NCBI GenBank assembly: GCA_051893155.1
Contig: JBJFGY010000017.1
Location: forward strand, 1,677-65,676
Source: Bacilli bacterium
GTDB lineage: Bacteria; Bacillota_I; Bacilli_A; RF39; UBA660
Reading direction: 5' to 3'
DNA length: 64,000 bases
Part shown: positions 2,996 to 50,578 of the stretch, in pieces
How the letters are laid out: every line of letters starts with the position of its first letter
Numbering within the stretch: the stretch's first letter is position 1
Position numbers and translations under genes: made by a program
The notes under the pieces: model-generated
What the model saw: the letters and a program-made list of their open reading frames with translations, nothing else
What the model was told of the DNA's origin: nothing
The model's database searches: none

Positions 2996-3865
2996 TTATT
3001 TCTTATCTTTCTTTTCTTCACCTTGTAATCCTTCTTTAATACCTTTACTAATTTCTTTAGCAATTTGTCCATAAGTAGGTGCCATTTCTTTTGCAATACT
3101 TGCTCCAGCTTTACCTATTGAAGGTGCTATTTTTTCAATACCTTCTTGTGCAATAGGCATCATTTGTTGTGCAGAAAATGCAGCAATTTCTCTTCTTTTA
3201 GTCATCATATAAATAGATGAAGATATCATTACAGAAGCAATAATAATAAATACACCAACTATATATAAGTAATCATGTTTTCCAGCTTCATGTTTTCTAT
3301 TAAAATCAGAATATTTACTATCTAATAAATTTATTTCATTATTTTTTGCTTTTAACTCATTTTTTAATAAGCAATATGAAGCTGTATAATTATTATTCTT
3401 AGCACTATCAAAAGCACAATGATCAAAACTTTCATCTAGAGCGTTTTCTATTACATCAATTGATTTTTTATCATCAGCAATACTTTCTTTTAATTCTTCA
3501 ATTTTATCTTCTCTAGCATAATATGCATCATCAAATCCTGTAAAAGTAACTCTATCTAAACTTTTTATTTCATCTTCTATTGGTTTAATTTTTGCTTCAA
3601 GATCTTCCTTTGATTTTATAAGATTTTGTTTTTCTTCTTCAACTTGATTAGATAGTTGTTGTTTTTCGTTTTCCAATTGTTGTAATTCCTTTGCTTTGCT
3701 TTTTTCGGAATATTTTTCATTAACAGCATTTTGTTTTACTATTCCTGTAATTATTAAACTACCTCCTAGTAATAATCCAATAACTAAAATAATTAATGAA
3801 ATAGACTTAATTTTTTTCTTTCCTTTTAAATAATTTTCCTCAGTTAAAATTTCTTTTTTTTCCAT
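2996..3865 (-). CDS. coiled-coil membrane protein with N-proximal and C-proximal TM segments
   Basis: 289 aa. A TM at about aa 20-45, a long E/K/Q-rich coiled coil, a second TM near aa 215, and a tail with IAKE-type repeats. Confidence 0.4.
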   Translation of the reverse strand: MEKKEILTEENYLKGKKKIKSISLIILVIGLLLGGSLIITGIVKQNAVNEKYSEKSKAKELQQLENEKQQLSNQVEEEKQNLIKSKEDLEAKIKPIEDEIKSLDRVTFTGFDDAYYAREDKIEELKESIADDKKSIDVIENALDESFDHCAFDSAKNNNYTASYCLLKNELKAKNNEINLLDSKYSDFNRKHEAGKHDYLYIVGVFIIIASVMISSSIYMMTKRREIAAFSAQQMMPIAQEGIEKIAPSIGKAGASIAKEMAPTYGQIAKEISKGIKEGLQGEEKKDKK

Positions 3866-7715: not shown

Positions 7716-8498
7716 TTATTTATTTTCCATAATTTTAACTAAGGCATCAAATACATTTTCACAAGATTTCATAAATGTTTCTTTAACTTGATTAATTTCA
7801 TTATTATTTATTTGACTTAATTGACCTAAATTTTCATCATTTAACGCTTGATTTAAAGTATTAACAAAAGGATTAGTTTGTTGCGTTTGCATAATATTTT
7901 GAGTATTAGGCTGAGCGATATTCTGTATTGGATTGATATTACTAATATTTTGGTCTAATGAATTTGGCATTGTTGGACTAACCATATTAGGCATCATTTG
8001 ATTCGGTAAAACTTGTGAATTAACACTTGGACCCATAGTAATAGGACTATCCATTATATTTTGTTCAATTGGAGTTTCTACTGGAGCAACCGGTTCTAAA
8101 GTTGGCATTACTTCAGGTGCAACTGGCACAACCTGTGGAGTTTCTGGAACTGGAGGTTTATAAGCATTTTTCAATACATCAAAAGATGCTACAGGTAATG
8201 TAAGTTGAGTAAAGAAATCATCTTGTGCAGTTAAATTTTCTGGAATAGTTAAATATATAAAATTATTCCCACTTATTATAGATTTTAAATTTTCTTTAAC
8301 ACTACTCCATTCACTTTGATCATATATTTTTTCAAGTTTATTTCCAACAAGCTTACTTATGCATATTATTGGAAGGCCCATAGAACCATTCATTTCATTA
8401 TCAAAAACAATATAATTTGCACTTGTACCTTGAAAACAGGTTACTAAAGGCTTTTCAAAAATATTACCACTTGCTAAACTTACTTTTATTTTACTCAT
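7716..8498 (-). CDS. hypothetical protein with a globular N-terminal domain and a Pro/Gln/Asn-rich low-complexity C-terminal half
   Basis: 260 aa. A PVPETPQVVPVAPEVMPTLEPVAPVETP linker, then N/Q-rich sequence. Confidence 0.4.
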   Translation of the reverse strand: MSKIKVSLASGNIFEKPLVTCFQGTSANYIVFDNEMNGSMGLPIICISKLVGNKLEKIYDQSEWSSVKENLKSIISGNNFIYLTIPENLTAQDDFFTQLTLPVASFDVLKNAYKPPVPETPQVVPVAPEVMPTLEPVAPVETPIEQNIMDSPITMGPSVNSQVLPNQMMPNMVSPTMPNSLDQNISNINPIQNIAQPNTQNIMQTQQTNPFVNTLNQALNDENLGQLSQINNNEINQVKETFMKSCENVFDALVKIMENK

Positions 8499-8542
8499 CT
8501 ATATCAATCCCTTCTTATGATAAAATCATTATAACAAAAATA

Positions 8543-8824
8543 TTATTTATTTTCAACTTTTTTGAGTATAAAATATCTACACCCATAAGCACAATATTTT
8601 TCAATATATTCTTGCACATTTTTTATATCATTTATCTTTTTAAAATTTTTATTTTCTTTATCATTAAATCCTTTTAAACGCAACTTACCATACGCCCAAT
8701 CACCAACTATATAATTAAATTCATCAAAATATTCAGTTATTTTATCTTTTAAAACATCTTCATCAATTGCATCTTTTTCATTTTTAATTACTTCATATGT
8801 TTTATCATTAATAGTTATTTTCAT
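8543..8824 (-). CDS. yutD: YutD-like protein (DUF1027)
   Basis: YIVGDWAYGKLRLKGF...YCAYGCRYFILKK matches the conserved YutD core (DWgYGqLRLKGF...C.FGC.YFvL). Confidence 0.6.
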   Translation of the reverse strand: MKITINDKTYEVIKNEKDAIDEDVLKDKITEYFDEFNYIVGDWAYGKLRLKGFNDKENKNFKKINDIKNVQEYIEKYCAYGCRYFILKKVENK

Positions 8825-42798: not shown

Positions 42799-44415
42799 TT
42801 AATAATTTAATGTCCTAAATTTTTTTACGCCATATTTACAAATTACAAAGTATAGTATAATTATAGTTAATATAAAAACAATAATTTGTAAAATAATAAC
42901 TATATAAGCAATTTTATAAAATTTTATCATAATAAGTATTGAAATAAGACCTAAACCCATTCCTAAAAATACAGCAACCATAGAACTTAAACTTTGTTTA
43001 ATTACTTCTACTTCAGTTGTCCACTTTAATTTAGGATATTTTAAATTAATTAAAATACCAATCATTGCACTAAGTGTTGGAACAGTCAATGTTAAAAATA
43101 TAATAAAGATTATATCTAATAATTTCACTTTAAAAAAAATTATAAATACTAAATCATTAATAAACATAAGTGGAATTACTAAAATCATACTAAATAATAC
43201 TTTTGAAAATATAATACTTTTTTCATTTATTGGTAAACTTTTTATAATATTTATTTTCTTACCTTCTAAAGAAATACTTGAAGAAGTAATAGATGTCATA
43301 AAACTTATAAAAATAATTATTTCAAAATATATTACTGGAGCATATTTTGTTATAGAAACAATTGAAATTTGTTCTTGCATATCACCATTAATTAAATTAA
43401 CAAAATTTTGAGAATTGCAACAAAAAAGTATTATCATAATAAGCATTAATATAATTCCAAACAAAGTATTAATTACATATACTGGAGAGGAAAAATAATA
43501 TTTAAATTCCTTTTTTATTAATGAAGTAATTTTATTATTTACTTTTATACTGTTATGATTATGCTTTTTTACTTTTTTTGTTTTAGTAACTGATGATTTA
43601 GATATAATCTTATAATAATTAATTGAGCCCAAATAAACAAAAATAATTAATGGAATTATATTAAATAAAATTAATTTTATAAAAGCTAATATATCAAATT
43701 TATTTATTAAGGATATATATGCATTTATTGGATAATAAAATTTTGTTATTATTTTATTAATAATTGGTGCTTTAGTGACAAAATTATTTACACTATTTTC
43801 CATTGAAAATGAAAAATAATAGATTATAACAAAAAAAATTATAGAAAGAATTGTTTGAACTCTTTTCTTATTTTTAAAATTAACAGATAAACCTTTTACA
43901 ATATATCCAATTATTGAAGCAATAATTGTAGGTATAATTGGTATTAGTAGAATCATTATTAAAGATATAAAATAAAAATTTACATTGGGATGTTCAAAAT
44001 ATGAATAAACAACTAAAGCAGGTAAAAATATCATTAATACATAAATATATTGAAATATTAAAAATTTAATTAGTCTTGCTAAAAATATTTTTTCCTTTTT
44101 TATAGGTAAAGAAAAAAGTAAATCATTATCTTCAGATTCAAATAAAATTCCTTGTGATTTAAAAAAACCTTGTAAAATTATAAAAAAAGATATTGCCATT
44201 ATAAATAAACTTAAACAAACATATGTTAAGTTAGCATCATGAAGTGGCTTTGCAAACATATAGGCATACACTCCTACTGAATACATTAGAAGTGCAAATA
44301 ATATTAATGGAAATAATATTTTTTTTATTTTTGATTTATTATTATTTGATTTTATTTTTAAAATATTTAATCCATCTTTTAATAAAACTTTTAATAAAGA
44401 TAATGTTTGTTTCAT
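42799..44415 (-). CDS. ABC transporter permease (large polytopic, ABC-2/exporter type)
   Basis: 538 aa with about 12 TM. Start overlaps the upstream ATPase gene. Confidence 0.5.
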   Translation of the reverse strand: MKQTLSLLKVLLKDGLNILKIKSNNNKSKIKKILFPLILFALLMYSVGVYAYMFAKPLHDANLTYVCLSLFIMAISFFIILQGFFKSQGILFESEDNDLLFSLPIKKEKIFLARLIKFLIFQYIYVLMIFLPALVVYSYFEHPNVNFYFISLIMILLIPIIPTIIASIIGYIVKGLSVNFKNKKRVQTILSIIFFVIIYYFSFSMENSVNNFVTKAPIINKIITKFYYPINAYISLINKFDILAFIKLILFNIIPLIIFVYLGSINYYKIISKSSVTKTKKVKKHNHNSIKVNNKITSLIKKEFKYYFSSPVYVINTLFGIILMLIMIILFCCNSQNFVNLINGDMQEQISIVSITKYAPVIYFEIIIFISFMTSITSSSISLEGKKINIIKSLPINEKSIIFSKVLFSMILVIPLMFINDLVFIIFFKVKLLDIIFIIFLTLTVPTLSAMIGILINLKYPKLKWTTEVEVIKQSLSSMVAVFLGMGLGLISILIMIKFYKIAYIVIILQIIVFILTIIILYFVICKYGVKKFRTLNY

Positions 44416-45122
44416 TTTTCATCCTCAAGTTCTAAAAATACTTCTTCTAAAGATTCGTCACCTTTAATATTTTTCATAGAACCAACTTTAATAAGTTTAC
44501 CATTTTTTATAATTGCTACTTCATCACAAAGTTTTTCAGCAACATCCAATATATGTGTTGAATAAAAAATGATTTTATTTTCTTTCACCATTTCCTTCAT
44601 TATTTTTTTCATATCAAACACGGCCTTTGGATCAAGACCTACAAATGGTTCGTCCATAATTAATATTTCTGGATTATGAGAAAGTGCTGCAATTAATGCA
44701 ACTTTTTGTTTCATTCCATGTGAAAAGCTTGATATTTCATCATATAAATTATTTTCAAGTTCAAGCATCTTTGCATATTTTCTAATGTTTTCTTCTCGCA
44801 CTTCTAATGGTGTTTCATACATATCACAAACAAAGTCAATAAAATCAATAGCTTTCATATTTTCATAAAGATCTGGATTATCTGGAATATAAGCCATTAT
44901 CTTTTTGCACTCTATAGGATTTTCTTTTATAGAATTTCCATTTATTAAAATATCTCCTTCATCAAATTCAATTATTCCCATCATTGCTTTTATCATTGTT
45001 GTTTTTCCTGCTCCATTATGACCTATAAAAGCAAAAATTTTTCCATTTTTAATATTAAAGTTCACATTATCAAGAGCTTTTTTTGTATTGTATTTTTTAC
45101 TAACATTTTTAATTTCTATCAT
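44412..45122 (-). CDS. ABC transporter ATP-binding protein
   Basis: Walker A GHNGAGKTT, signature FSHGMKQKVAL, Walker B ILIMDEPF. Confidence 0.85.
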   Translation of the reverse strand: MIEIKNVSKKYNTKKALDNVNFNIKNGKIFAFIGHNGAGKTTMIKAMMGIIEFDEGDILINGNSIKENPIECKKIMAYIPDNPDLYENMKAIDFIDFVCDMYETPLEVREENIRKYAKMLELENNLYDEISSFSHGMKQKVALIAALSHNPEILIMDEPFVGLDPKAVFDMKKIMKEMVKENKIIFYSTHILDVAEKLCDEVAIIKNGKLIKVGSMKNIKGDESLEEVFLELEDEK

Positions 45123-45181: not shown

Positions 45182-45619
45182 TTAACTTAATCTATCTTTT
45201 ACAATCTTACTAACTAAAGACATATCTGCATTAGTTATTTTTGAAGAAATAATTTTCATTAAATTTCCCATATCTTTCATTGAAGTTGGTTTAACTTCTT
45301 CGAAGACTAAATCAATTACTTTATTTATTTCTTCTTCACTCATTTCTTGTGGTAAGTATTTATTTAATACTTCAACTTCATGTTCTAGTTCTTTTACAGT
45401 CTCAAGTTTATTATATTTTTTGTATTCCTCAATAGAATCTTTTCTAGTTTTAACTTGTTTTTTTATAACTTTTAAAACTTCCTCATCAGTAAGTTCATGT
45501 AAAGAGCCTTTTCGACTTTCAACAATAAATTCACTCTTTAACATTCTTAAGACAGATAAGGTAAATTTATCACCACTTTTTAAAGCGTTTTTTAAATCTA
45601 AATTAATTTGTTCTAACAT
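45182..45619 (-). CDS. yqeY: GatB/YqeY domain protein
   Basis: 145 aa. Conserved N-terminus DLKNALKSGDKFTLSVLRML. Canonical partner downstream of rpsU. Confidence 0.85.
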   Translation of the reverse strand: MLEQINLDLKNALKSGDKFTLSVLRMLKSEFIVESRKGSLHELTDEEVLKVIKKQVKTRKDSIEEYKKYNKLETVKELEHEVEVLNKYLPQEMSEEEINKVIDLVFEEVKPTSMKDMGNLMKIISSKITNADMSLVSKIVKDRLS

Positions 45620-45628
45620 AATTACTCC

Positions 45629-45817
45629 TTAATTATGATTTCTACGGCGTGAATTTTTAATATTTTCTTTCTTTTCATTTCTTCTTTTAACGCCTGGTTT
45701 TTCATAGCATTTTCTCTTCTTAAGTTCTGAAGGGACGCCACTACGAGCAAATTTTGCTTTAAACTTTTTCAAAGCAAGATCAACATTACCATTTTGAACT
45801 ACAACCTTTGTCATCAT
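45629..45817 (-). CDS. rpsU: 30S ribosomal protein S21
   Basis: MTKVVVQNGNVDLALKKFKAKFARSGVPSELKKRKCYEKPGVKRR. Start placed at ATGATG after the gaagggaggg RBS; the track ORF started inside the RBS. Confidence 0.85.
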   Translation of the reverse strand: MMTKVVVQNGNVDLALKKFKAKFARSGVPSELKKRKCYEKPGVKRRNEKKENIKNSRRRNHN

Positions 45818-45843
45818 TATCCCTCCCTTCATTAACTAGCATT

Positions 45844-45872
45844 ATTATAACACCTACCACATATTTTGACAA
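45844..45872 (-). promoter_or_regulatory. sigma-A promoter for rpsU-yqeY
   Basis: Minus-strand reading: TTGTCA, 17 nt, TATAAT. It lies about 25 nt upstream of the RBS and only 6 nt downstream of the peptide-2 stop. Confidence 0.55.
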
Positions 45873-45877
45873 GATTT

Positions 45878-46033
45878 TTAACAACTTGTATGATTAAATA
45901 ATCGACGCAATGTTGAACCAAAATTTTGTCCATAACCATATATGGCAATAATTAATTTTCCTGCAGCAGCAAGCCAAGAAGCACTTACAGCTCCACCAAC
46001 ATATAAAACGCTTTCATCACTATTTAACACCAT
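45878..46033 (-). CDS. double-glycine-leader peptide 2 (candidate bacteriocin or signalling peptide precursor). Too small for the ORF track.
   Basis: My own translation: MVLNSDESVLYVGG then AVSASWLAAAGKLIIAIYGYGQNFGSTLRRLFNHTSC. The leader fits the GG-leader consensus (L-12, E-8, Y-4, GG). The predicted mature part of 37 aa has a GxxxG motif. The ATG is 1 nt after the peptide-1 stop. Confidence 0.55.
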   Translation of the reverse strand: MVLNSDESVLYVGGAVSASWLAAAGKLIIAIYGYGQNFGSTLRRLFNHTSC

Positions 46034-46034
46034 T

Positions 46035-46181
46035 TTATCTTATATTGCAAGCCTTTGGATTAGAAAAGCCATCAATAATTCCAAAAAAGAATGAACTAAT
46101 TACTGAAATAATAAAAATACTACCCAAAGAAAACTTTGCACCTCCTGTATATTTTATCATTTCATCATCTTTCAAAAGCAT
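46035..46181 (-). CDS. double-glycine-leader peptide 1 (candidate bacteriocin or signalling peptide precursor). Too small for the ORF track.
   Basis: Strong RBS GGAGGT 6 nt upstream. MLLKDDEMIKYTGG then AKFSLGSIFIISVISSFFFGIIDGFSNPKACNIR. The leader has L-12, E-8, M-7, Y-4 and GG. The mature part is hydrophobic with a GxxxG motif (GIIDG). Confidence 0.6.
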   Translation of the reverse strand: MLLKDDEMIKYTGGAKFSLGSIFIISVISSFFFGIIDGFSNPKACNIR

Positions 46182-46193
46182 GCTACCTCCTTT

Positions 46194-46601
46194 CTAAAAT
46201 ATAATTTTAAATATTTTTTTTATTATTTTTTCTTTATCAAAATAAAATGTTATTTTCACAACTTCATTTTCTTTTAAATTTATATTTGTTTTTAATGTAT
46301 AAATTTGATAGTTTTGGTAATTTTCATTTAATAAATCTGAAATATTATCAATCTTATAACTATATTCATCATTTTTTATTTTCATCTTATTATTTAAAGT
46401 TATTTTGTCAGAGTTTTCTACTAAAATGTTAACTTTAATAAAGCCATTTTCATAAATACCATAAGTATTAAAATTACTATATGATTCTAAAAAAAATGAA
46501 AGAATAATAAAAATAATAAATATACCTAAAAACATAATTAAAAATAAATTATTTTTATATTTAATATTTTGCAAATAATAATAACTACTTTTCATATTCA
46601 C
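46194..46601 (-). CDS. small N-anchored membrane protein (possible minimal or truncated HlyD/LcnD-like accessory, or an immunity protein)
   Basis: 135 aa with a single TM (LFLIMFLGIFIIFIILSFFL) and a roughly 95-aa extracytoplasmic part. It overlaps the PCAT stop by 17 nt and ends 12 nt before peptide 1. Confidence 0.45.
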   Translation of the reverse strand: MNMKSSYYYLQNIKYKNNLFLIMFLGIFIIFIILSFFLESYSNFNTYGIYENGFIKVNILVENSDKITLNNKMKIKNDEYSYKIDNISDLLNENYQNYQIYTLKTNINLKENEVVKITFYFDKEKIIKKIFKIIF

Positions 46602-48642
46602 CTTTTAAAGTAATAACTCGATCAAACAAATTATCTTGTTTTTTATGTGATATATAAATTATTGTTTTTTCTGGATATTCTCTAATAATATTTTTAATTA
46701 TTGTTTTTTCCATAAAATAATCTATTTCACTAAGTGCTTCATCTAAAATTAATATTTTACTATTTCTTAATAAAGCCCTTGCTAAAATAATTCTCTGTTT
46801 TTCACCTCCTGATATATTAATCGAATCATTACTTATTCCAAAATCATATCTTAATTTTCTTTTATTAACAATTAAATCGATTAAACAAATTTTACAAACT
46901 TTATCAAAATTACTTTCATCTTTATAATTAAATAAAATATTATTTTTTATTGTATCAGTATATAAATTTTCTTTTTGACCAACATAAACAATATTATTTT
47001 TTATTGTGTTAAGACTATAATCATTGATATTTATACCATTTATATAAATATTACCATTATTTAAAGAAAATTCTCTAGTAAGTAGTTTACATAAACTACT
47101 TTTACCACTTCCACTTTTTCCTTTAATCATGATTTTTTCATTAGTTTTAACTACTTCACTAAAATCTTTTATAATGTAATTATAATTATCATAAGCAAAG
47201 CTTACATTTTCAAAAATAATATCGCCATTAATTAGTTTTTTACTTTCACCAACTTTTTCCTCTTTTATATTTATAAAATCACATATTTTATTAAAACTTG
47301 CTCGTAAAAAATTATATTTTGGTATTAGTGATACTATATTTTTAATGGGGTCTATAAAATAAGATAAAAATGTATTATAAATAACTAAACTAATTAAAGA
47401 AAATTTATTATTATAAATTAAATAAAATCCATAAGTATTAATTAAAAAAAATGATAGTTCATAAAAAATATTTTTAATTGTTTCAAAAAAATTTATATTT
47501 ATATTAAAAGAATAATTATCAAAAATCAAATCACATATTTTATTTTCAATTTTATTTAAAATATTTTCAGTTTCATTTAAATTTTTTATACTATTTATCA
47601 TATTAATATTTTCTAATAAAATAGTATTAACTTCTGTTTGATATTCAATATTTTTTCGTATTCTTTTATAAAAATATGGACTAATTAAAATAGAAATTAT
47701 TATATAAATTACAACAAATATAATTAATATAAATGTTATTTTAATATTTAAATTTAAAAGAACTATAAAAGCAGCAAGGCAAATCATTAAGTCTAAAAAT
47801 GCAAAAATAAATATTTGTGAAAATAATTCTTTAATACTACTTATTTCGTTTACTCGTGACATTATTTCACCACTGCTTCTTGATTCAATAACATTTAAAG
47901 GAAGATGAAATAAATGATTAATAAATTCCTTAAAAACACTTATATCAATATTTTTATTAATATGATTTTCATAGTATTTTTTTAAATAATCAAAAATTAT
48001 TTTAAAAATAATACAAACTAAAAATATAAAAATTATTATTTTAATTGTATTTTGAAATGCATTGTTTGAAATAAATTCATTCATTATTTTAAAATACATT
48101 CCAGATATTACAGTAATAATTGTTAATAAAAAACTACATAATAATGCATTAATACATAATTTTTTATTTTTTATTAAAATTTTTATAAAAAGACTATAAA
48201 TACTATTTTCTTTTTCTAATAAAATAATTTTATCTTTAGGAGTAAATTGTAAAATAACGCCAGTAAATATTTTATTAAAATCATCTTTAGTCATTTTTAT
48301 CTTGCCTTTACTAGGATTCATTAAAATATAATTTGAATTTTTAATACCATATAAGCACATAAAATGCGTAAGACCATTATCATATTTCACGTGTACAATC
48401 GCAGGCAAAATAATGTTATCTAATTCTTTATCTTCAAATTTTTTAGCTATAGCATCAAATCCATACTTTTCCGCGGCTTTAAGTAAATGATAGACACTAA
48501 CCCCTTGCATTGATGTATAAGTATCAAGTCTAATCTTTTCTATTGGAACATAACCATTATAAAATCTTATAATAGATTGAAGACAACAAGCACCACAATC
48601 TTTTACATCTCTTTGACAAACTATTACTATTTTATTTTTCAT
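46585..48642 (-). CDS. peptidase-containing ABC transporter (C39 peptidase + 6TM + ABC ATPase), bacteriocin/peptide exporter
   Basis: N-terminal C39 motif VCQRDVKDCGACCLQSI with the conserved His (THFMCLYG). Walker A GKSGSGKSS, signature ISGGEKQRIILARAL, Walker B ILILDEALS. Confidence 0.85.
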   Translation of the reverse strand: MKNKIVIVCQRDVKDCGACCLQSIIRFYNGYVPIEKIRLDTYTSMQGVSVYHLLKAAEKYGFDAIAKKFEDKELDNIILPAIVHVKYDNGLTHFMCLYGIKNSNYILMNPSKGKIKMTKDDFNKIFTGVILQFTPKDKIILLEKENSIYSLFIKILIKNKKLCINALLCSFLLTIITVISGMYFKIMNEFISNNAFQNTIKIIIFIFLVCIIFKIIFDYLKKYYENHINKNIDISVFKEFINHLFHLPLNVIESRSSGEIMSRVNEISSIKELFSQIFIFAFLDLMICLAAFIVLLNLNIKITFILIIFVVIYIIISILISPYFYKRIRKNIEYQTEVNTILLENINMINSIKNLNETENILNKIENKICDLIFDNYSFNININFFETIKNIFYELSFFLINTYGFYLIYNNKFSLISLVIYNTFLSYFIDPIKNIVSLIPKYNFLRASFNKICDFINIKEEKVGESKKLINGDIIFENVSFAYDNYNYIIKDFSEVVKTNEKIMIKGKSGSGKSSLCKLLTREFSLNNGNIYINGININDYSLNTIKNNIVYVGQKENLYTDTIKNNILFNYKDESNFDKVCKICLIDLIVNKRKLRYDFGISNDSINISGGEKQRIILARALLRNSKILILDEALSEIDYFMEKTIIKNIIREYPEKTIIYISHKKQDNLFDRVITLKGEYEK

Positions 48643-48827
48643 TTATTTATCCTCCTTTCACCCTACTTATACTCACAATAAATTATTTTTCCTTTTTATT
48701 TTTTTACTTTTAAAATTTTTAATTTAAATTTAACAATTTTTTACTAAAATTAATAATAAAATTTTACAATTATTAACAGTTATATTTTTAGGACTTAGAC
48801 AATATAATTTACTATGTATAAGGAGGA

Positions 48828-49331
48828 ATGAAAGTATTGATTAATAAACAAAATTTATGGTTTATAACTTTATTTGCACTTATTTTAATTTTAGGAATTT
48901 ATTATATTACATTACCGGATAATGCCATACCAACATTTTCGACTAATGAAACAAACTTACAAAATACAATCGAAGTTACAGATTCTGATGTAATTATAGC
49001 TCTTAAAGTTGAAGAAGAAGAAAAAATATTAAAAGAAATGGAAGAAGCACAAAAAATATTACTAGATAATGCTGCAACTACAGAAGAAAAAAATGCTGCA
49101 TATGAAACATTACAACAACTTAATTTTAAAAAAGGCAAAATAGTTGAAATAGAAAAATTAATTAAAGAAAAATTTGATGTTGATTCATGTGTTAAAATTG
49201 ATGGAAATAAAATAAATATTACGTTATCATGTGAAGATAAAGGTGCAGAATTTGCAAATAATGTTATTAAAGAAGTACAAACACTTTATAGTTCGCAAAT
49301 GTATATAACAATTAAATTTCAAAGTAAATAG
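48828..49331 (+). CDS. N-anchored sporulation-type protein (SpoIIIAH-like architecture; assignment tentative)
   Basis: 167 aa. TM, an E-rich coiled linker, and a C-terminal domain ending ...VKIDGNKINITLSCEDKGAEFANNVIKEV... Confidence 0.3.
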   Translation: MKVLINKQNLWFITLFALILILGIYYITLPDNAIPTFSTNETNLQNTIEVTDSDVIIALKVEEEEKILKEMEEAQKILLDNAATTEEKNAAYETLQQLNFKKGKIVEIEKLIKEKFDVDSCVKIDGNKINITLSCEDKGAEFANNVIKEVQTLYSSQMYITIKFQSK

Positions 49332-49372
49332 GCTTATATATTACCTTTTTTTTGTATTTTTCATAATATATT

Positions 49373-49606
49373 ATGAAGCATAAGAAAGGAAGGCCTATGA
49401 AAAAAATGTTATTAACCAAAAGAGAACAAGAAATTTTTGAACTTTTAGTTCTTAACAAATCAACTAAAGAAATAGCCGAAAAACTCAATATTAGTCAAAA
49501 AACTGTTCGAAATCATATATCTAATACAATGCAAAAATTAGGTGTTAAAGGCCGATGTAATGCGATAATAGAATTATTAAAACTTGGAGCAATTTCATTA
49601 GATTAA
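49373..49606 (+). CDS. gerE: sporulation transcription regulator GerE (LuxR-type HTH)
   Basis: LLTKREQEIFELLVLNKSTKEIAEKLNISQKTVRNHISNTMQKLGVKGRCNAIIELLKLG closely matches the GerE pattern. The real start is probably the ATG at 49397 after the aaggaagg RBS. Confidence 0.8.
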   Translation: MKHKKGRPMKKMLLTKREQEIFELLVLNKSTKEIAEKLNISQKTVRNHISNTMQKLGVKGRCNAIIELLKLGAISLD

Positions 49607-49610
49607 TAAA

Positions 49611-49636
49611 AAAGCCAATAAGGCTTTTTTTGAATA
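49611..49636 (+). terminator. rho-independent terminator after gerE
   Basis: aaaaagccaataaggcttttttt: an agcc/ggct stem plus a T run. Confidence 0.55.
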
Positions 49637-49675
49637 AAGAATAAAATATTAAATATAATTTATTAGGTGATGTAA

Positions 49676-50578
49676 ATGCTAAAAAGACGTGCTATAAAAA
49701 GAATAATTATATCTACAGGTGCACTTCTTATATTTTTTTTAATTTATTTTTTCCCAAATCAAAATAATTTTTCTATTCCAGAAGAAGTAATATATATTGA
49801 AGAATTAACTTTACCACTATATACAATAGATCAAAATAATTATGTTGCAAGAACAAATATTATAAAAAAAGAAAATGATGATATAAACTATATAATAAAT
49901 GTTTTAACAAAAGGTTCAATTAATTCAAATTATCTACCTAGTAATTTTTACTCGCCTATACCAAAAGGTACAAAGTTAATTGACTATAGCTTAAATGATG
50001 GACTTTTAAAACTTAATTTTTCAAAAGAATTATTAAATGTAACAAAATCAGATGAAGAAAAAATGCTTGAAAGTTTAATATATTCATTATGTGAACTTGA
50101 TAATGTAAATAAAATTATGATTTTTGTTGAAAATGAAAAATTAAACGAACTTCCAAATTCAAAGACTAAACTACCTACCGTTTTAGATAAAACTTACGGA
50201 ATAAATAAAGTATATGATATTAAAAATATTAAAGATACCACTAAAACAACAATATACTATTTAAGTAAATATGAAGATGATTTATATTATGTTCCAATTA
50301 CAAAAATTACTAATAATGATGAAAAAAATTATGTAGAAATAATCGTTAATGAATTAAAAACTTCTCCAATTTATGAAAGTAATTTATTAAGTTATTTAAA
50401 TGCTAGTTATGAACTTGAAAGTTATGAAATACTAGAAAATTCTATTACATTATCATTTAATAATAATTTAATTGCTTCTTTAGAAGATAAAGATTTAGTA
50501 GAAAAAGTTAAATATTCAATTTCACTTTCTTTAAGGGACACATATAATCTAGATAATATTATAATTAATGTGAATTAA
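49676..50578 (+). CDS. gerM: GerM-like germination/sporulation protein (two GerMN-type repeats), N-anchored
   Basis: 300 aa. N-terminal TM. Two repeats with ...KLNFS.../...TLSFN... modules, resembling the GerMN domain organisation. Tentative. Confidence 0.4.
   Translation: MLKRRAIKRIIISTGALLIFFLIYFFPNQNNFSIPEEVIYIEELTLPLYTIDQNNYVARTNIIKKENDDINYIINVLTKGSINSNYLPSNFYSPIPKGTKLIDYSLNDGLLKLNFSKELLNVTKSDEEKMLESLIYSLCELDNVNKIMIFVENEKLNELPNSKTKLPTVLDKTYGINKVYDIKNIKDTTKTTIYYLSKYEDDLYYVPITKITNNDEKNYVEIIVNELKTSPIYESNLLSYLNASYELESYEILENSITLSFNNNLIASLEDKDLVEKVKYSISLSLRDTYNLDNIIINVN

Follow-up and report, generated by a model that had tools for sequence, protein, structure and literature searches.

The plasmid-encoded exporters nearest to the one described here were PCATs from C. 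botulinum, C. perfringens and Carnobacterium maltaromaticum, which were ~31% identical to it. The gene directly after each of these PCATs (loci L012, L013, and L014) encoded an HlyD-type accessory protein, of 476, 509, and 433 aa, annotated as 'HlyD family efflux transporter periplasmic adaptor subunit' or 'bacteriocin secretion accessory protein'. The accessory gene abutted or overlapped the PCAT stop in the two Clostridium plasmids, and began ~80 nt after it in Carnobacterium. Genes encoding 433–509 aa beside the three closest plasmid PCATs agree with the initial annotation of this DNA, which stated that PCATs usually pair with an accessory protein of ~450 aa. For ComB, a Gram-positive accessory protein of this kind, interaction with ComA has not been detected in vitro (PMC10630487).

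The window, i.e., the whole 64,000-nucleotide stretch of Bacilli DNA that was analysed, has a base composition of 23% GC and contains a minus-strand run of four genes, encoding a PCAT, a 133-aa protein, peptide A and peptide B, followed by rpsU and yqeY. Like class IIb loci of the lactococcin G and lactobin A/cerein 7B types, the run combines two adjacent peptides bearing double-glycine (GG) leaders with a dedicated PCAT. Unlike them, it lacks both a recognisable immunity gene and an HlyD-type accessory, and it occupies a fixed chromosomal site rather than a plasmid or variable island. The features of the run were as follows.

46585..48642, minus strand: PCAT, 685 aa, with C39 peptidase, ABC membrane and ABC ATPase domains (Pfam, NCBIfam)
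46598..46605, minus strand: Shine-Dalgarno-like AAAGGTGA serving ATG 46595, inside the 3' end of the PCAT gene (sequence reading)
46194..46595, minus strand: coding sequence of the 133-aa protein, which passes the membrane once (start ATG 46595, stop 46196..46194)
46035..46181, minus strand: peptide A precursor, 48 aa, with a double-glycine leader (..YTGG before AKF..) and a core ending GIIDGFSNPKACNIR
45878..46033, minus strand: peptide B precursor, 51 aa, with a double-glycine leader (..YVGG before AVS..) and a core with GQNFGSTLRRL....C
45844..45872, minus strand: promoter-like TTGTCA-17-TATAAT, TG-extended, 11/12 matches in a consensus scan (a consensus match only)

The 685-aa exporter was identified as a PCAT from its C39 peptidase (PF03412, 1.5e-34), ABC membrane (PF00664, 1.6e-32) and ABC ATPase (PF00005, 2.2e-24) domains. 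It also matched the NCBIfam models TIGR01193 (2e-114, 384 bits) and NF045998, a mycoplasmal PCAT model (5.4e-98, 329 bits over the full length, cutoff 500), both below the curated cutoffs. The order of PCAT, 133-aa gene and two GG-leader peptide genes confirmed the placement of the 133-aa gene between exporter and peptides. The peptide A gene begins 12 nt past the end of the 133-aa gene and has a strong AAAGGAGG site past that end, while the start of peptide B is one base past the peptide A stop. The promoter-like site, which lies between peptide B and rpsU, probably marks the end of the four-gene unit and the start of rpsU-yqeY. The window peptides gave weak matches to lactococcin G-beta and lactobin A/cerein 7B. 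With the lactococcin G-beta model, E-values for the peptides were 0.004–0.04, and one homologous peptide passed the class IIb model TIGR03949 (27.8 bits against a cutoff of 21.5).

Both the ORF list and the sequence contain an uninterrupted ORF at 46194..46601, on the minus strand, which the initial annotation had left unstated. Translation from GTG 46601 would give 135 aa, the length first reported, and translation from ATG 46595 gives 133 aa. The true product is most likely the 133-aa protein (46194..46595), and the 135-aa GTG reading is less likely, because GTG 46601 falls within the Shine-Dalgarno-like AAAGGTGA (46605..46598) preceding ATG 46595, and because database and homologous proteins start at the equivalent Met. 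The identical NCBI protein (P0001, 'hypothetical protein ACI4XR_01235 [Bacilli bacterium]') is 133 aa long with a Met start, and all homologues begin at the Met equivalent to ATG 46595. The ORF first reported is real, while its product is likely shorter than stated. Its reported overlap with the PCAT stop (46587..46585) was confirmed; it amounts to 11 nt when counted from the ATG and to 17 nt from the GTG. This overlap implies translational coupling of the 133-aa gene to the PCAT gene, and the arrangement predicts co-transcription of the two. The probability of a 135-codon stop-free frame arising by chance at 23% GC is ~8e-7 per frame; given this value and ~129 homologous clusters, the ORF at 46194..46595 is a genuine gene.

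The 133-aa protein has a sole hydrophobic segment, at residues 15–35, with a mean Kyte-Doolittle value of 3.1. The residues before this segment include three Lys and no acidic residue, and those after it two Glu and no basic residue. This charge distribution indicates an N-in/C-out orientation with 98 extracytoplasmic residues, and matches the original description of an N-anchored protein with one TM segment and ~95 residues outside. Neither a cysteine nor a redox motif was present in the protein, which was divided into four parts.

46554..46595, minus strand: cytoplasmic N-terminus, residues 1–14, with the motif N-Y-x-x-L-L-N-I-K-x-K and a predicted helix at 2–9
46491..46553, minus strand: single TM helix, residues 15–35, hydropathy maximum 3.1, AlphaFold2 pLDDT >90
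46227..46490, minus strand: predicted extracytoplasmic beta-barrel domain, residues 36–123, with seven strands and a short helix at 59–66 (AlphaFold2)
46197..46226, minus strand: C-terminal Lys-rich amphipathic helix, residues 124–133, IIKKIFKIIF, AlphaFold2 helix at 124–132

An AlphaFold2 model of the full-length protein, made with the family alignment, had a mean pLDDT of 94.2, with helices at 2–9, 15–35 (TM), 59–66, and 124–132, and strands at 37–49, 52–58, 70–73, 76–85, 89–91, 94–103, and 111–123. The ectodomain modelled alone adopted the same fold (pLDDT 90.6). Removal of the TM segment lowered the pLDDT of the C-terminal helix to about 63, which suggests that this helix packs against the membrane-embedded part. 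In the predicted structure, a beta-barrel of ~90 residues and an amphipathic helix are displayed on the outer face of the membrane.

In a full HMMER scan of 1.84 billion representative proteins, with clusters taken at the 50% identity level, the 133-aa protein matched at least 129 clusters with E < 1e-3, including 42 with E < 1e-10. The members of this family vary little in size, nearly all having 130–140 aa and aligning over their whole length. The family clusters carried no informative name and their traced sources were all metagenomes or MAGs; a look-up of 10 distant members also gave no informative name, only one 'hypothetical protein'. An alignment of 115 family sequences (A1) showed the N-Y-x-x-L-L-N-I-K-x-K cytoplasmic motif, a variable hydrophobic helix and a Y-Y-N-K-E-K-I-I-K-K-I C-terminus. 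Column frequencies within the cytoplasmic motif were 86% for Y5, 80% for L8, 66% for N10, and 69% for K12. Y39, S62-D63, Y96-Q97, and N110 were conserved in the ectodomain, and K127 of the C-terminal helix in 90% of sequences. Pfam gave no match for the window protein and nothing meaningful for its relatives, nor did scans of the protein and relatives with PADLOC and PHROGs return anything meaningful; at the level of sequence, the protein belongs to no curated family. A search for related loci with the single protein P0014 found only four MAG loci, of which two were titled Bacilli, one Bacillota and one 'uncultured Mycoplasma sp.'.

Gene context was compared among the window and 11 distinct loci (L001, L005, L008, L010, L015, L017, L018, L019, L020, L023, and L025), in which the small protein was 27–46% identical to that of the window. 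A C39-ABC exporter of 678–690 aa was located upstream of the small gene in all 11 related loci, the exporter in L018 running off the contig end and having no Pfam record. The start of the small gene overlapped the 3' end of the PCAT gene by 4–23 nt in 12/12 loci. In all loci it was followed by GG-leader peptide genes, two in number and within 18 nt or overlapping, with three in L015 and L023. Conservation of the ORF beside homologous PCATs, which the initial annotation had set as a test, was found in all 12 loci, and its remark that an accessory of ~450 aa is missing here extends to the whole set, as no HlyD-family gene occurred in the flanks of the window or of the 11 related loci.

The same two peptide families were found in every related locus, each with a distinctive C-terminal motif: family A ends in ...G-(I/V)-x-D-G-x-x-N-P-x-x-C, and family B has ...G-(Q/R)-x-x-G-(S/T)-x-x-R-R......C. 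In most loci each peptide had exactly one Cys near its C-terminus, absent in L023, and this arrangement hints at an inter-peptide disulfide. The peptide pairs were located as follows.

45878..46181, minus strand: peptide pair of the window
8415-8724: peptide pair of L001
6425-6742: peptide pair of L005
5428-5744: peptide pair of L008
5412-5708: peptide pair of L010
2699-2994: peptide pair of L015
5414-5715: peptide pair of L017
2275-2592: peptide pair of L018

One subgroup (L015 and L023) had a third GG-leader peptide, of 43 aa, and between the peptides and rpsU a single-TM protein of 62–69 aa (MNKKGFTAMYMVYS...) for which there was no Pfam match. A PF06541 (ABC_trans_CmpB) gene was located directly upstream of the PCAT in three other loci, with an E-value of 3.5e-49 in L019, and was absent from the window. 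The CmpB-like protein is a possible immunity or auxiliary component.

2568-2699 and 3581-3769: third peptide and 62–69 aa protein, L015
4313-4444 and 4788-4997: third peptide and 62–69 aa protein, L023
2108-2824: PF06541 gene, L017
3084-3851: PF06541 gene, L019
1133-1906: PF06541 gene, L020

The cassette usually occupied a fixed chromosomal site (window 45182..50578; L001, L005, L008, L017, L019, and L025), where it was divergent from spoIIIAH-gerE-Germane and/or just upstream of rpsU-yqeY-yabP-yqfD-ybeY-dgkA-era-recO. No homologue of the cassette was detected by tblastn on 72,556 plasmids. Because of this fixed site and the lack of a plasmid homologue, inheritance of the cassette appears to be vertical, within a clade of uncultured Bacilli that sporulate and have very AT-rich DNA.

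Since the accessory gene directly follows the PCAT in the plasmid loci, the 133-aa gene occupies the accessory slot. In common with HlyD/LcnD/ComB accessories, it lies directly after the PCAT gene and is coupled to it, and its product has a short basic cytoplasmic N-terminus, a single N-in TM segment and its bulk outside. The best structural matches of the ectodomain include the MFP beta-barrel domain alongside unrelated small barrels. The 133-aa protein is about 3.5 times shorter than these accessories and has neither a lipoyl (barrel-sandwich) domain nor a long alpha-helical hairpin, because the 98-residue ectodomain leaves no room for either. Sequence comparison did not demonstrate homology. 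No MFP family in Pfam recurred among the 115 members, none of the NCBIfam MFP models matched the window protein, and the EmrA NCBIfam model matched one of the 115 members (E 0.019).

A 30-sequence clostridial HlyD alignment (A3) was compared with A1 by hhalign, and aligned with the N-terminal 68 columns only (E 5e-4, probability 31%). Permuting the cytoplasmic or the ectodomain columns barely lowered this N-terminal score, indicating that it reflects mostly TM composition. The N-terminal alignment that had been suggested for the protein did not show a relationship, nor did the HlyD profile search, in which the 133-aa family had no significant match. The ectodomain alone gave E 0.11–0.72 against A3. 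At low stringency, a collinear alignment placed residues 52–132 on the beta-barrel part of clostridial HlyD (370–472) and kept the order strand-helix-strand-strand-strand-strand-helix, but its score was reached by 21 of 100 column-permuted controls, and that of the C-terminal part alone by 31 of 150. Alignments of the IS, NYQ~SFY, and KEK-helix segments were appealing by eye but did not exceed permuted controls, and were not accepted as evidence of HlyD homology. The 133-aa family may derive from an MFP that lost its lipoyl and coiled-coil domains, or it may be an analogue. A literature search on small PCAT accessories found nothing relevant.

Foldseek comparison of the model with the PDB gave no match at E < 1e-3, the matches having E 0.05–0.65. 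The matches of the ectodomain were mostly MFP chains, with probabilities of 0.57–0.99 and TM-scores of 0.42–0.54, but with E 0.1–0.65. Spr0693 (5xu0) matched with a probability of 0.99 and a TM-score of 0.50, again not at E < 1e-3, MacA (9qgy_G) with a TM-score of 0.54 and an rmsd of 3.3 over 81 columns, and further MFP matches were MacA (5nik/3fpp), AcrA (2f1m) and MexA (6iok). The predicted ectodomain resembles the adaptor barrels of tripartite pumps (MacA 5nik/9qgy, Spr0693, AcrA, and MexA) in its small size, its six to seven strands and its single short helix, at TM-scores of 0.42–0.54 and rmsd 3.3–5 over about 80 residues. The barrel is one of four domains in those adaptors, whereas it is the whole ectodomain of the 133-aa protein. 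The N-terminal barrels of HerA and F1-ATPase were also among the best matches, and unrelated small barrels (HerA, PilZ) scored as well as those of MFPs. In their own assemblies, the small barrels of MFPs, HerA and F1 form side-by-side rings beside a membrane or motor, and in pumps the MFP beta-barrel domain adjoins the membrane and the transporter. A sequence-profile search of the PDB returned only CcpA (E 0.11), which was taken as chance. The PH domain has seven strands and a C-terminal helix, and a bacterial PH-domain export or immunity helper was considered and dropped, as no PH structure was among the Foldseek matches.

The closest curated model was NF045999 of NCBIfam, 'MAG1140 family protein', whose 126 positions describe a mycoplasmal protein that is uncharacterised. 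The window protein scored 12 bits against it (E 0.18, residues 19–132 to profile positions 13–126), and its best relative, P0151, 29.9 bits (E 5.2e-7, residues 19–133 to positions 10–125), both short of the curated cutoff of 35 bits. In total, 29 of the 115 members matched NF045999 at E ≤ 0.1, the best at 1.3e-6, and the spans were similar in P0129, P0133, P0138, P0151, and P0117. The 133-aa family thus resembles the MAG1140 family in length (~126 aa) and in its end-to-end collinear match, and differs in scoring below the cutoff; on sequence grounds it is probably a sister group of the mycoplasmal family and not a member. A profile search of a 5.8-billion-protein set did not reach the named mycoplasmal proteins. 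The NF045998 match of the PCAT and the MAG1140 link of its neighbour point to a module of PCAT and small partner common to these Bacilli and Mycoplasma. The consecutive numbers NF045998 and NF045999 are only a hint that MAG1140 genes lie beside the Mbov_0121-type PCAT in Mycoplasma/Mycoplasmopsis, and a literature search on MAG1140 and Mbov_0121 yielded no more than an entry for the PCAT in a table of virulence factors.

The PCAT accessory slot is filled here by a minimal protein of an unannotated family, and we give about even chances to its serving the adjacent PCAT as a minimal partner subunit in place of HlyD. This role is favoured because of the accessory slot, the coupling in 12/12 loci, the topology, the cytoplasmic motif, the MFP-like barrel and the absence of an HlyD gene. 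What we infer about function draws on genomic context and predicted structure. Of the roles first put forward, that of a novel minimal accessory is the best supported (slot, coupling, topology and barrel matches), although its homology to HlyD/LcnD is unsupported by sequence.

The initial annotation had also considered a truncated accessory relic. The 133-aa protein is shorter than any known accessory protein, lacks a curated family match and comes from an AT-rich, drift-prone genome, as might be expected if a full-length HlyD/LcnD accessory gene were decaying here, or if the ORF were spurious. However, a family of at least 129 clusters with constant length, conserved over 27–46% identity with an intact and invariant context in 12 loci, together with a confident, compact predicted fold (pLDDT 94.2; ectodomain 90.6), is not that of a remnant; the constant length and conservation across the family rule out a relic, the chance probability of about 8e-7 argues against a spurious ORF, and the two readings together retain a negligible probability. 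A role in immunity to the neighbouring pair of class-IIb-like peptides, also suggested initially, is unlikely but is the main rival. By analogy with LanI proteins, which are lipid-anchored and act at the producer surface against lantibiotics, the anchored beta domain would, outside the cell, capture or sequester the mature peptides, or else keep them from their receptor. Most of the protein is on the outer side of the membrane, which is also the site of peptide action, both peptide families accompany the 133-aa gene in every locus, and if the peptides are self-toxic, the 133-aa protein would be the only candidate within the four-gene cassette, being its only product that is neither pump nor peptide. 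The profile search for immunity families gave no match for the window protein and no recurrent one in Pfam or NCBIfam over the 115 members, single TipC and CdiI matches being noise, and no LanI or other immunity structure ranked among the 50 best Foldseek matches. The class II immunity proteins that are known either form helical bundles or are polytopic in the membrane, and their genes normally come after the structural peptide genes, whereas in 12/12 loci the 133-aa gene lies ahead of the peptide genes and is coupled to the pump gene. Some loci also have other candidates, namely the CmpB-like protein upstream (L017, L019, and L020) or the 62–69 aa TM protein after the peptides (L015 and L023). 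Finally, a surface-binding role leaves the conserved cytoplasmic motif unexplained; such a motif would suit a protein that contacts the pump, but not an immunity protein acting at the surface.

The strict co-occurrence with pump and peptide pair is also compatible with another extracytoplasmic role tied to the cargo, such as a docking or assembly chaperone for the peptide pair, or an export helper that is also an immunity factor. The peptides have conserved C-terminal motifs and single cysteines in most loci, and small barrels of this kind often form rings (HerA, F1, and MFP matches). Yet such a role has no precedent, the peptide cysteines are missing in L023, and the 133-aa protein itself contains neither cysteine nor redox motif, which makes this role decidedly improbable. 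A thiol-oxidoreductase was ruled out, since a protein with no cysteine cannot itself catalyse disulfide formation.

As an exporter partner, the 133-aa protein would stand in for the HlyD/LcnD/ComB accessory with a cytoplasmic motif, a TM helix and a membrane-proximal beta-barrel. The TM helix and conserved cytoplasmic motif would pack against the exporter, and the barrels would oligomerise at its outer mouth, where they may assist the release, and possibly the pairing, of the two processed class-IIb-like peptides. Beyond this locus, we tentatively suggest, as a possibility rather than an expectation, that the 133-aa and MAG1140 families form an unrecognised class of minimal PCAT adaptors, in effect an MFP stripped to motif, TM helix and barrel, serving a two-peptide export module that is chromosomally fixed and vertically inherited in uncultured, sporulating Bacilli related to Mollicutes. 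If the minimal-adaptor reading is true, it pinpoints the part of ComB/LcnD that matters for peptide export, and the 133-aa protein would be a natural minimal system for the study of the larger accessories; should it be needed for export, it would represent the essential core of accessory function, small enough for structural work. Were it an immunity protein, its fold would be new among class II immunity proteins. In both cases, a testable role is provided for a family without a Pfam model that is linked to the uncharacterised MAG1140 family.

Bacteriocin loci do not usually keep one site, as the cassette does, across genomes that have diverged deeply; this suggests vertical inheritance and perhaps also a connection with sporulation. 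Just downstream of yqeY (42799..45122, minus strand), the window encodes a 236-aa ABC ATPase together with a multi-TM permease of 538 aa (PF16949, 'putative ABC exporter'), at the place where related genomes have yabP-yqfD. This pair could be an immunity-type exporter or unrelated to the cassette.
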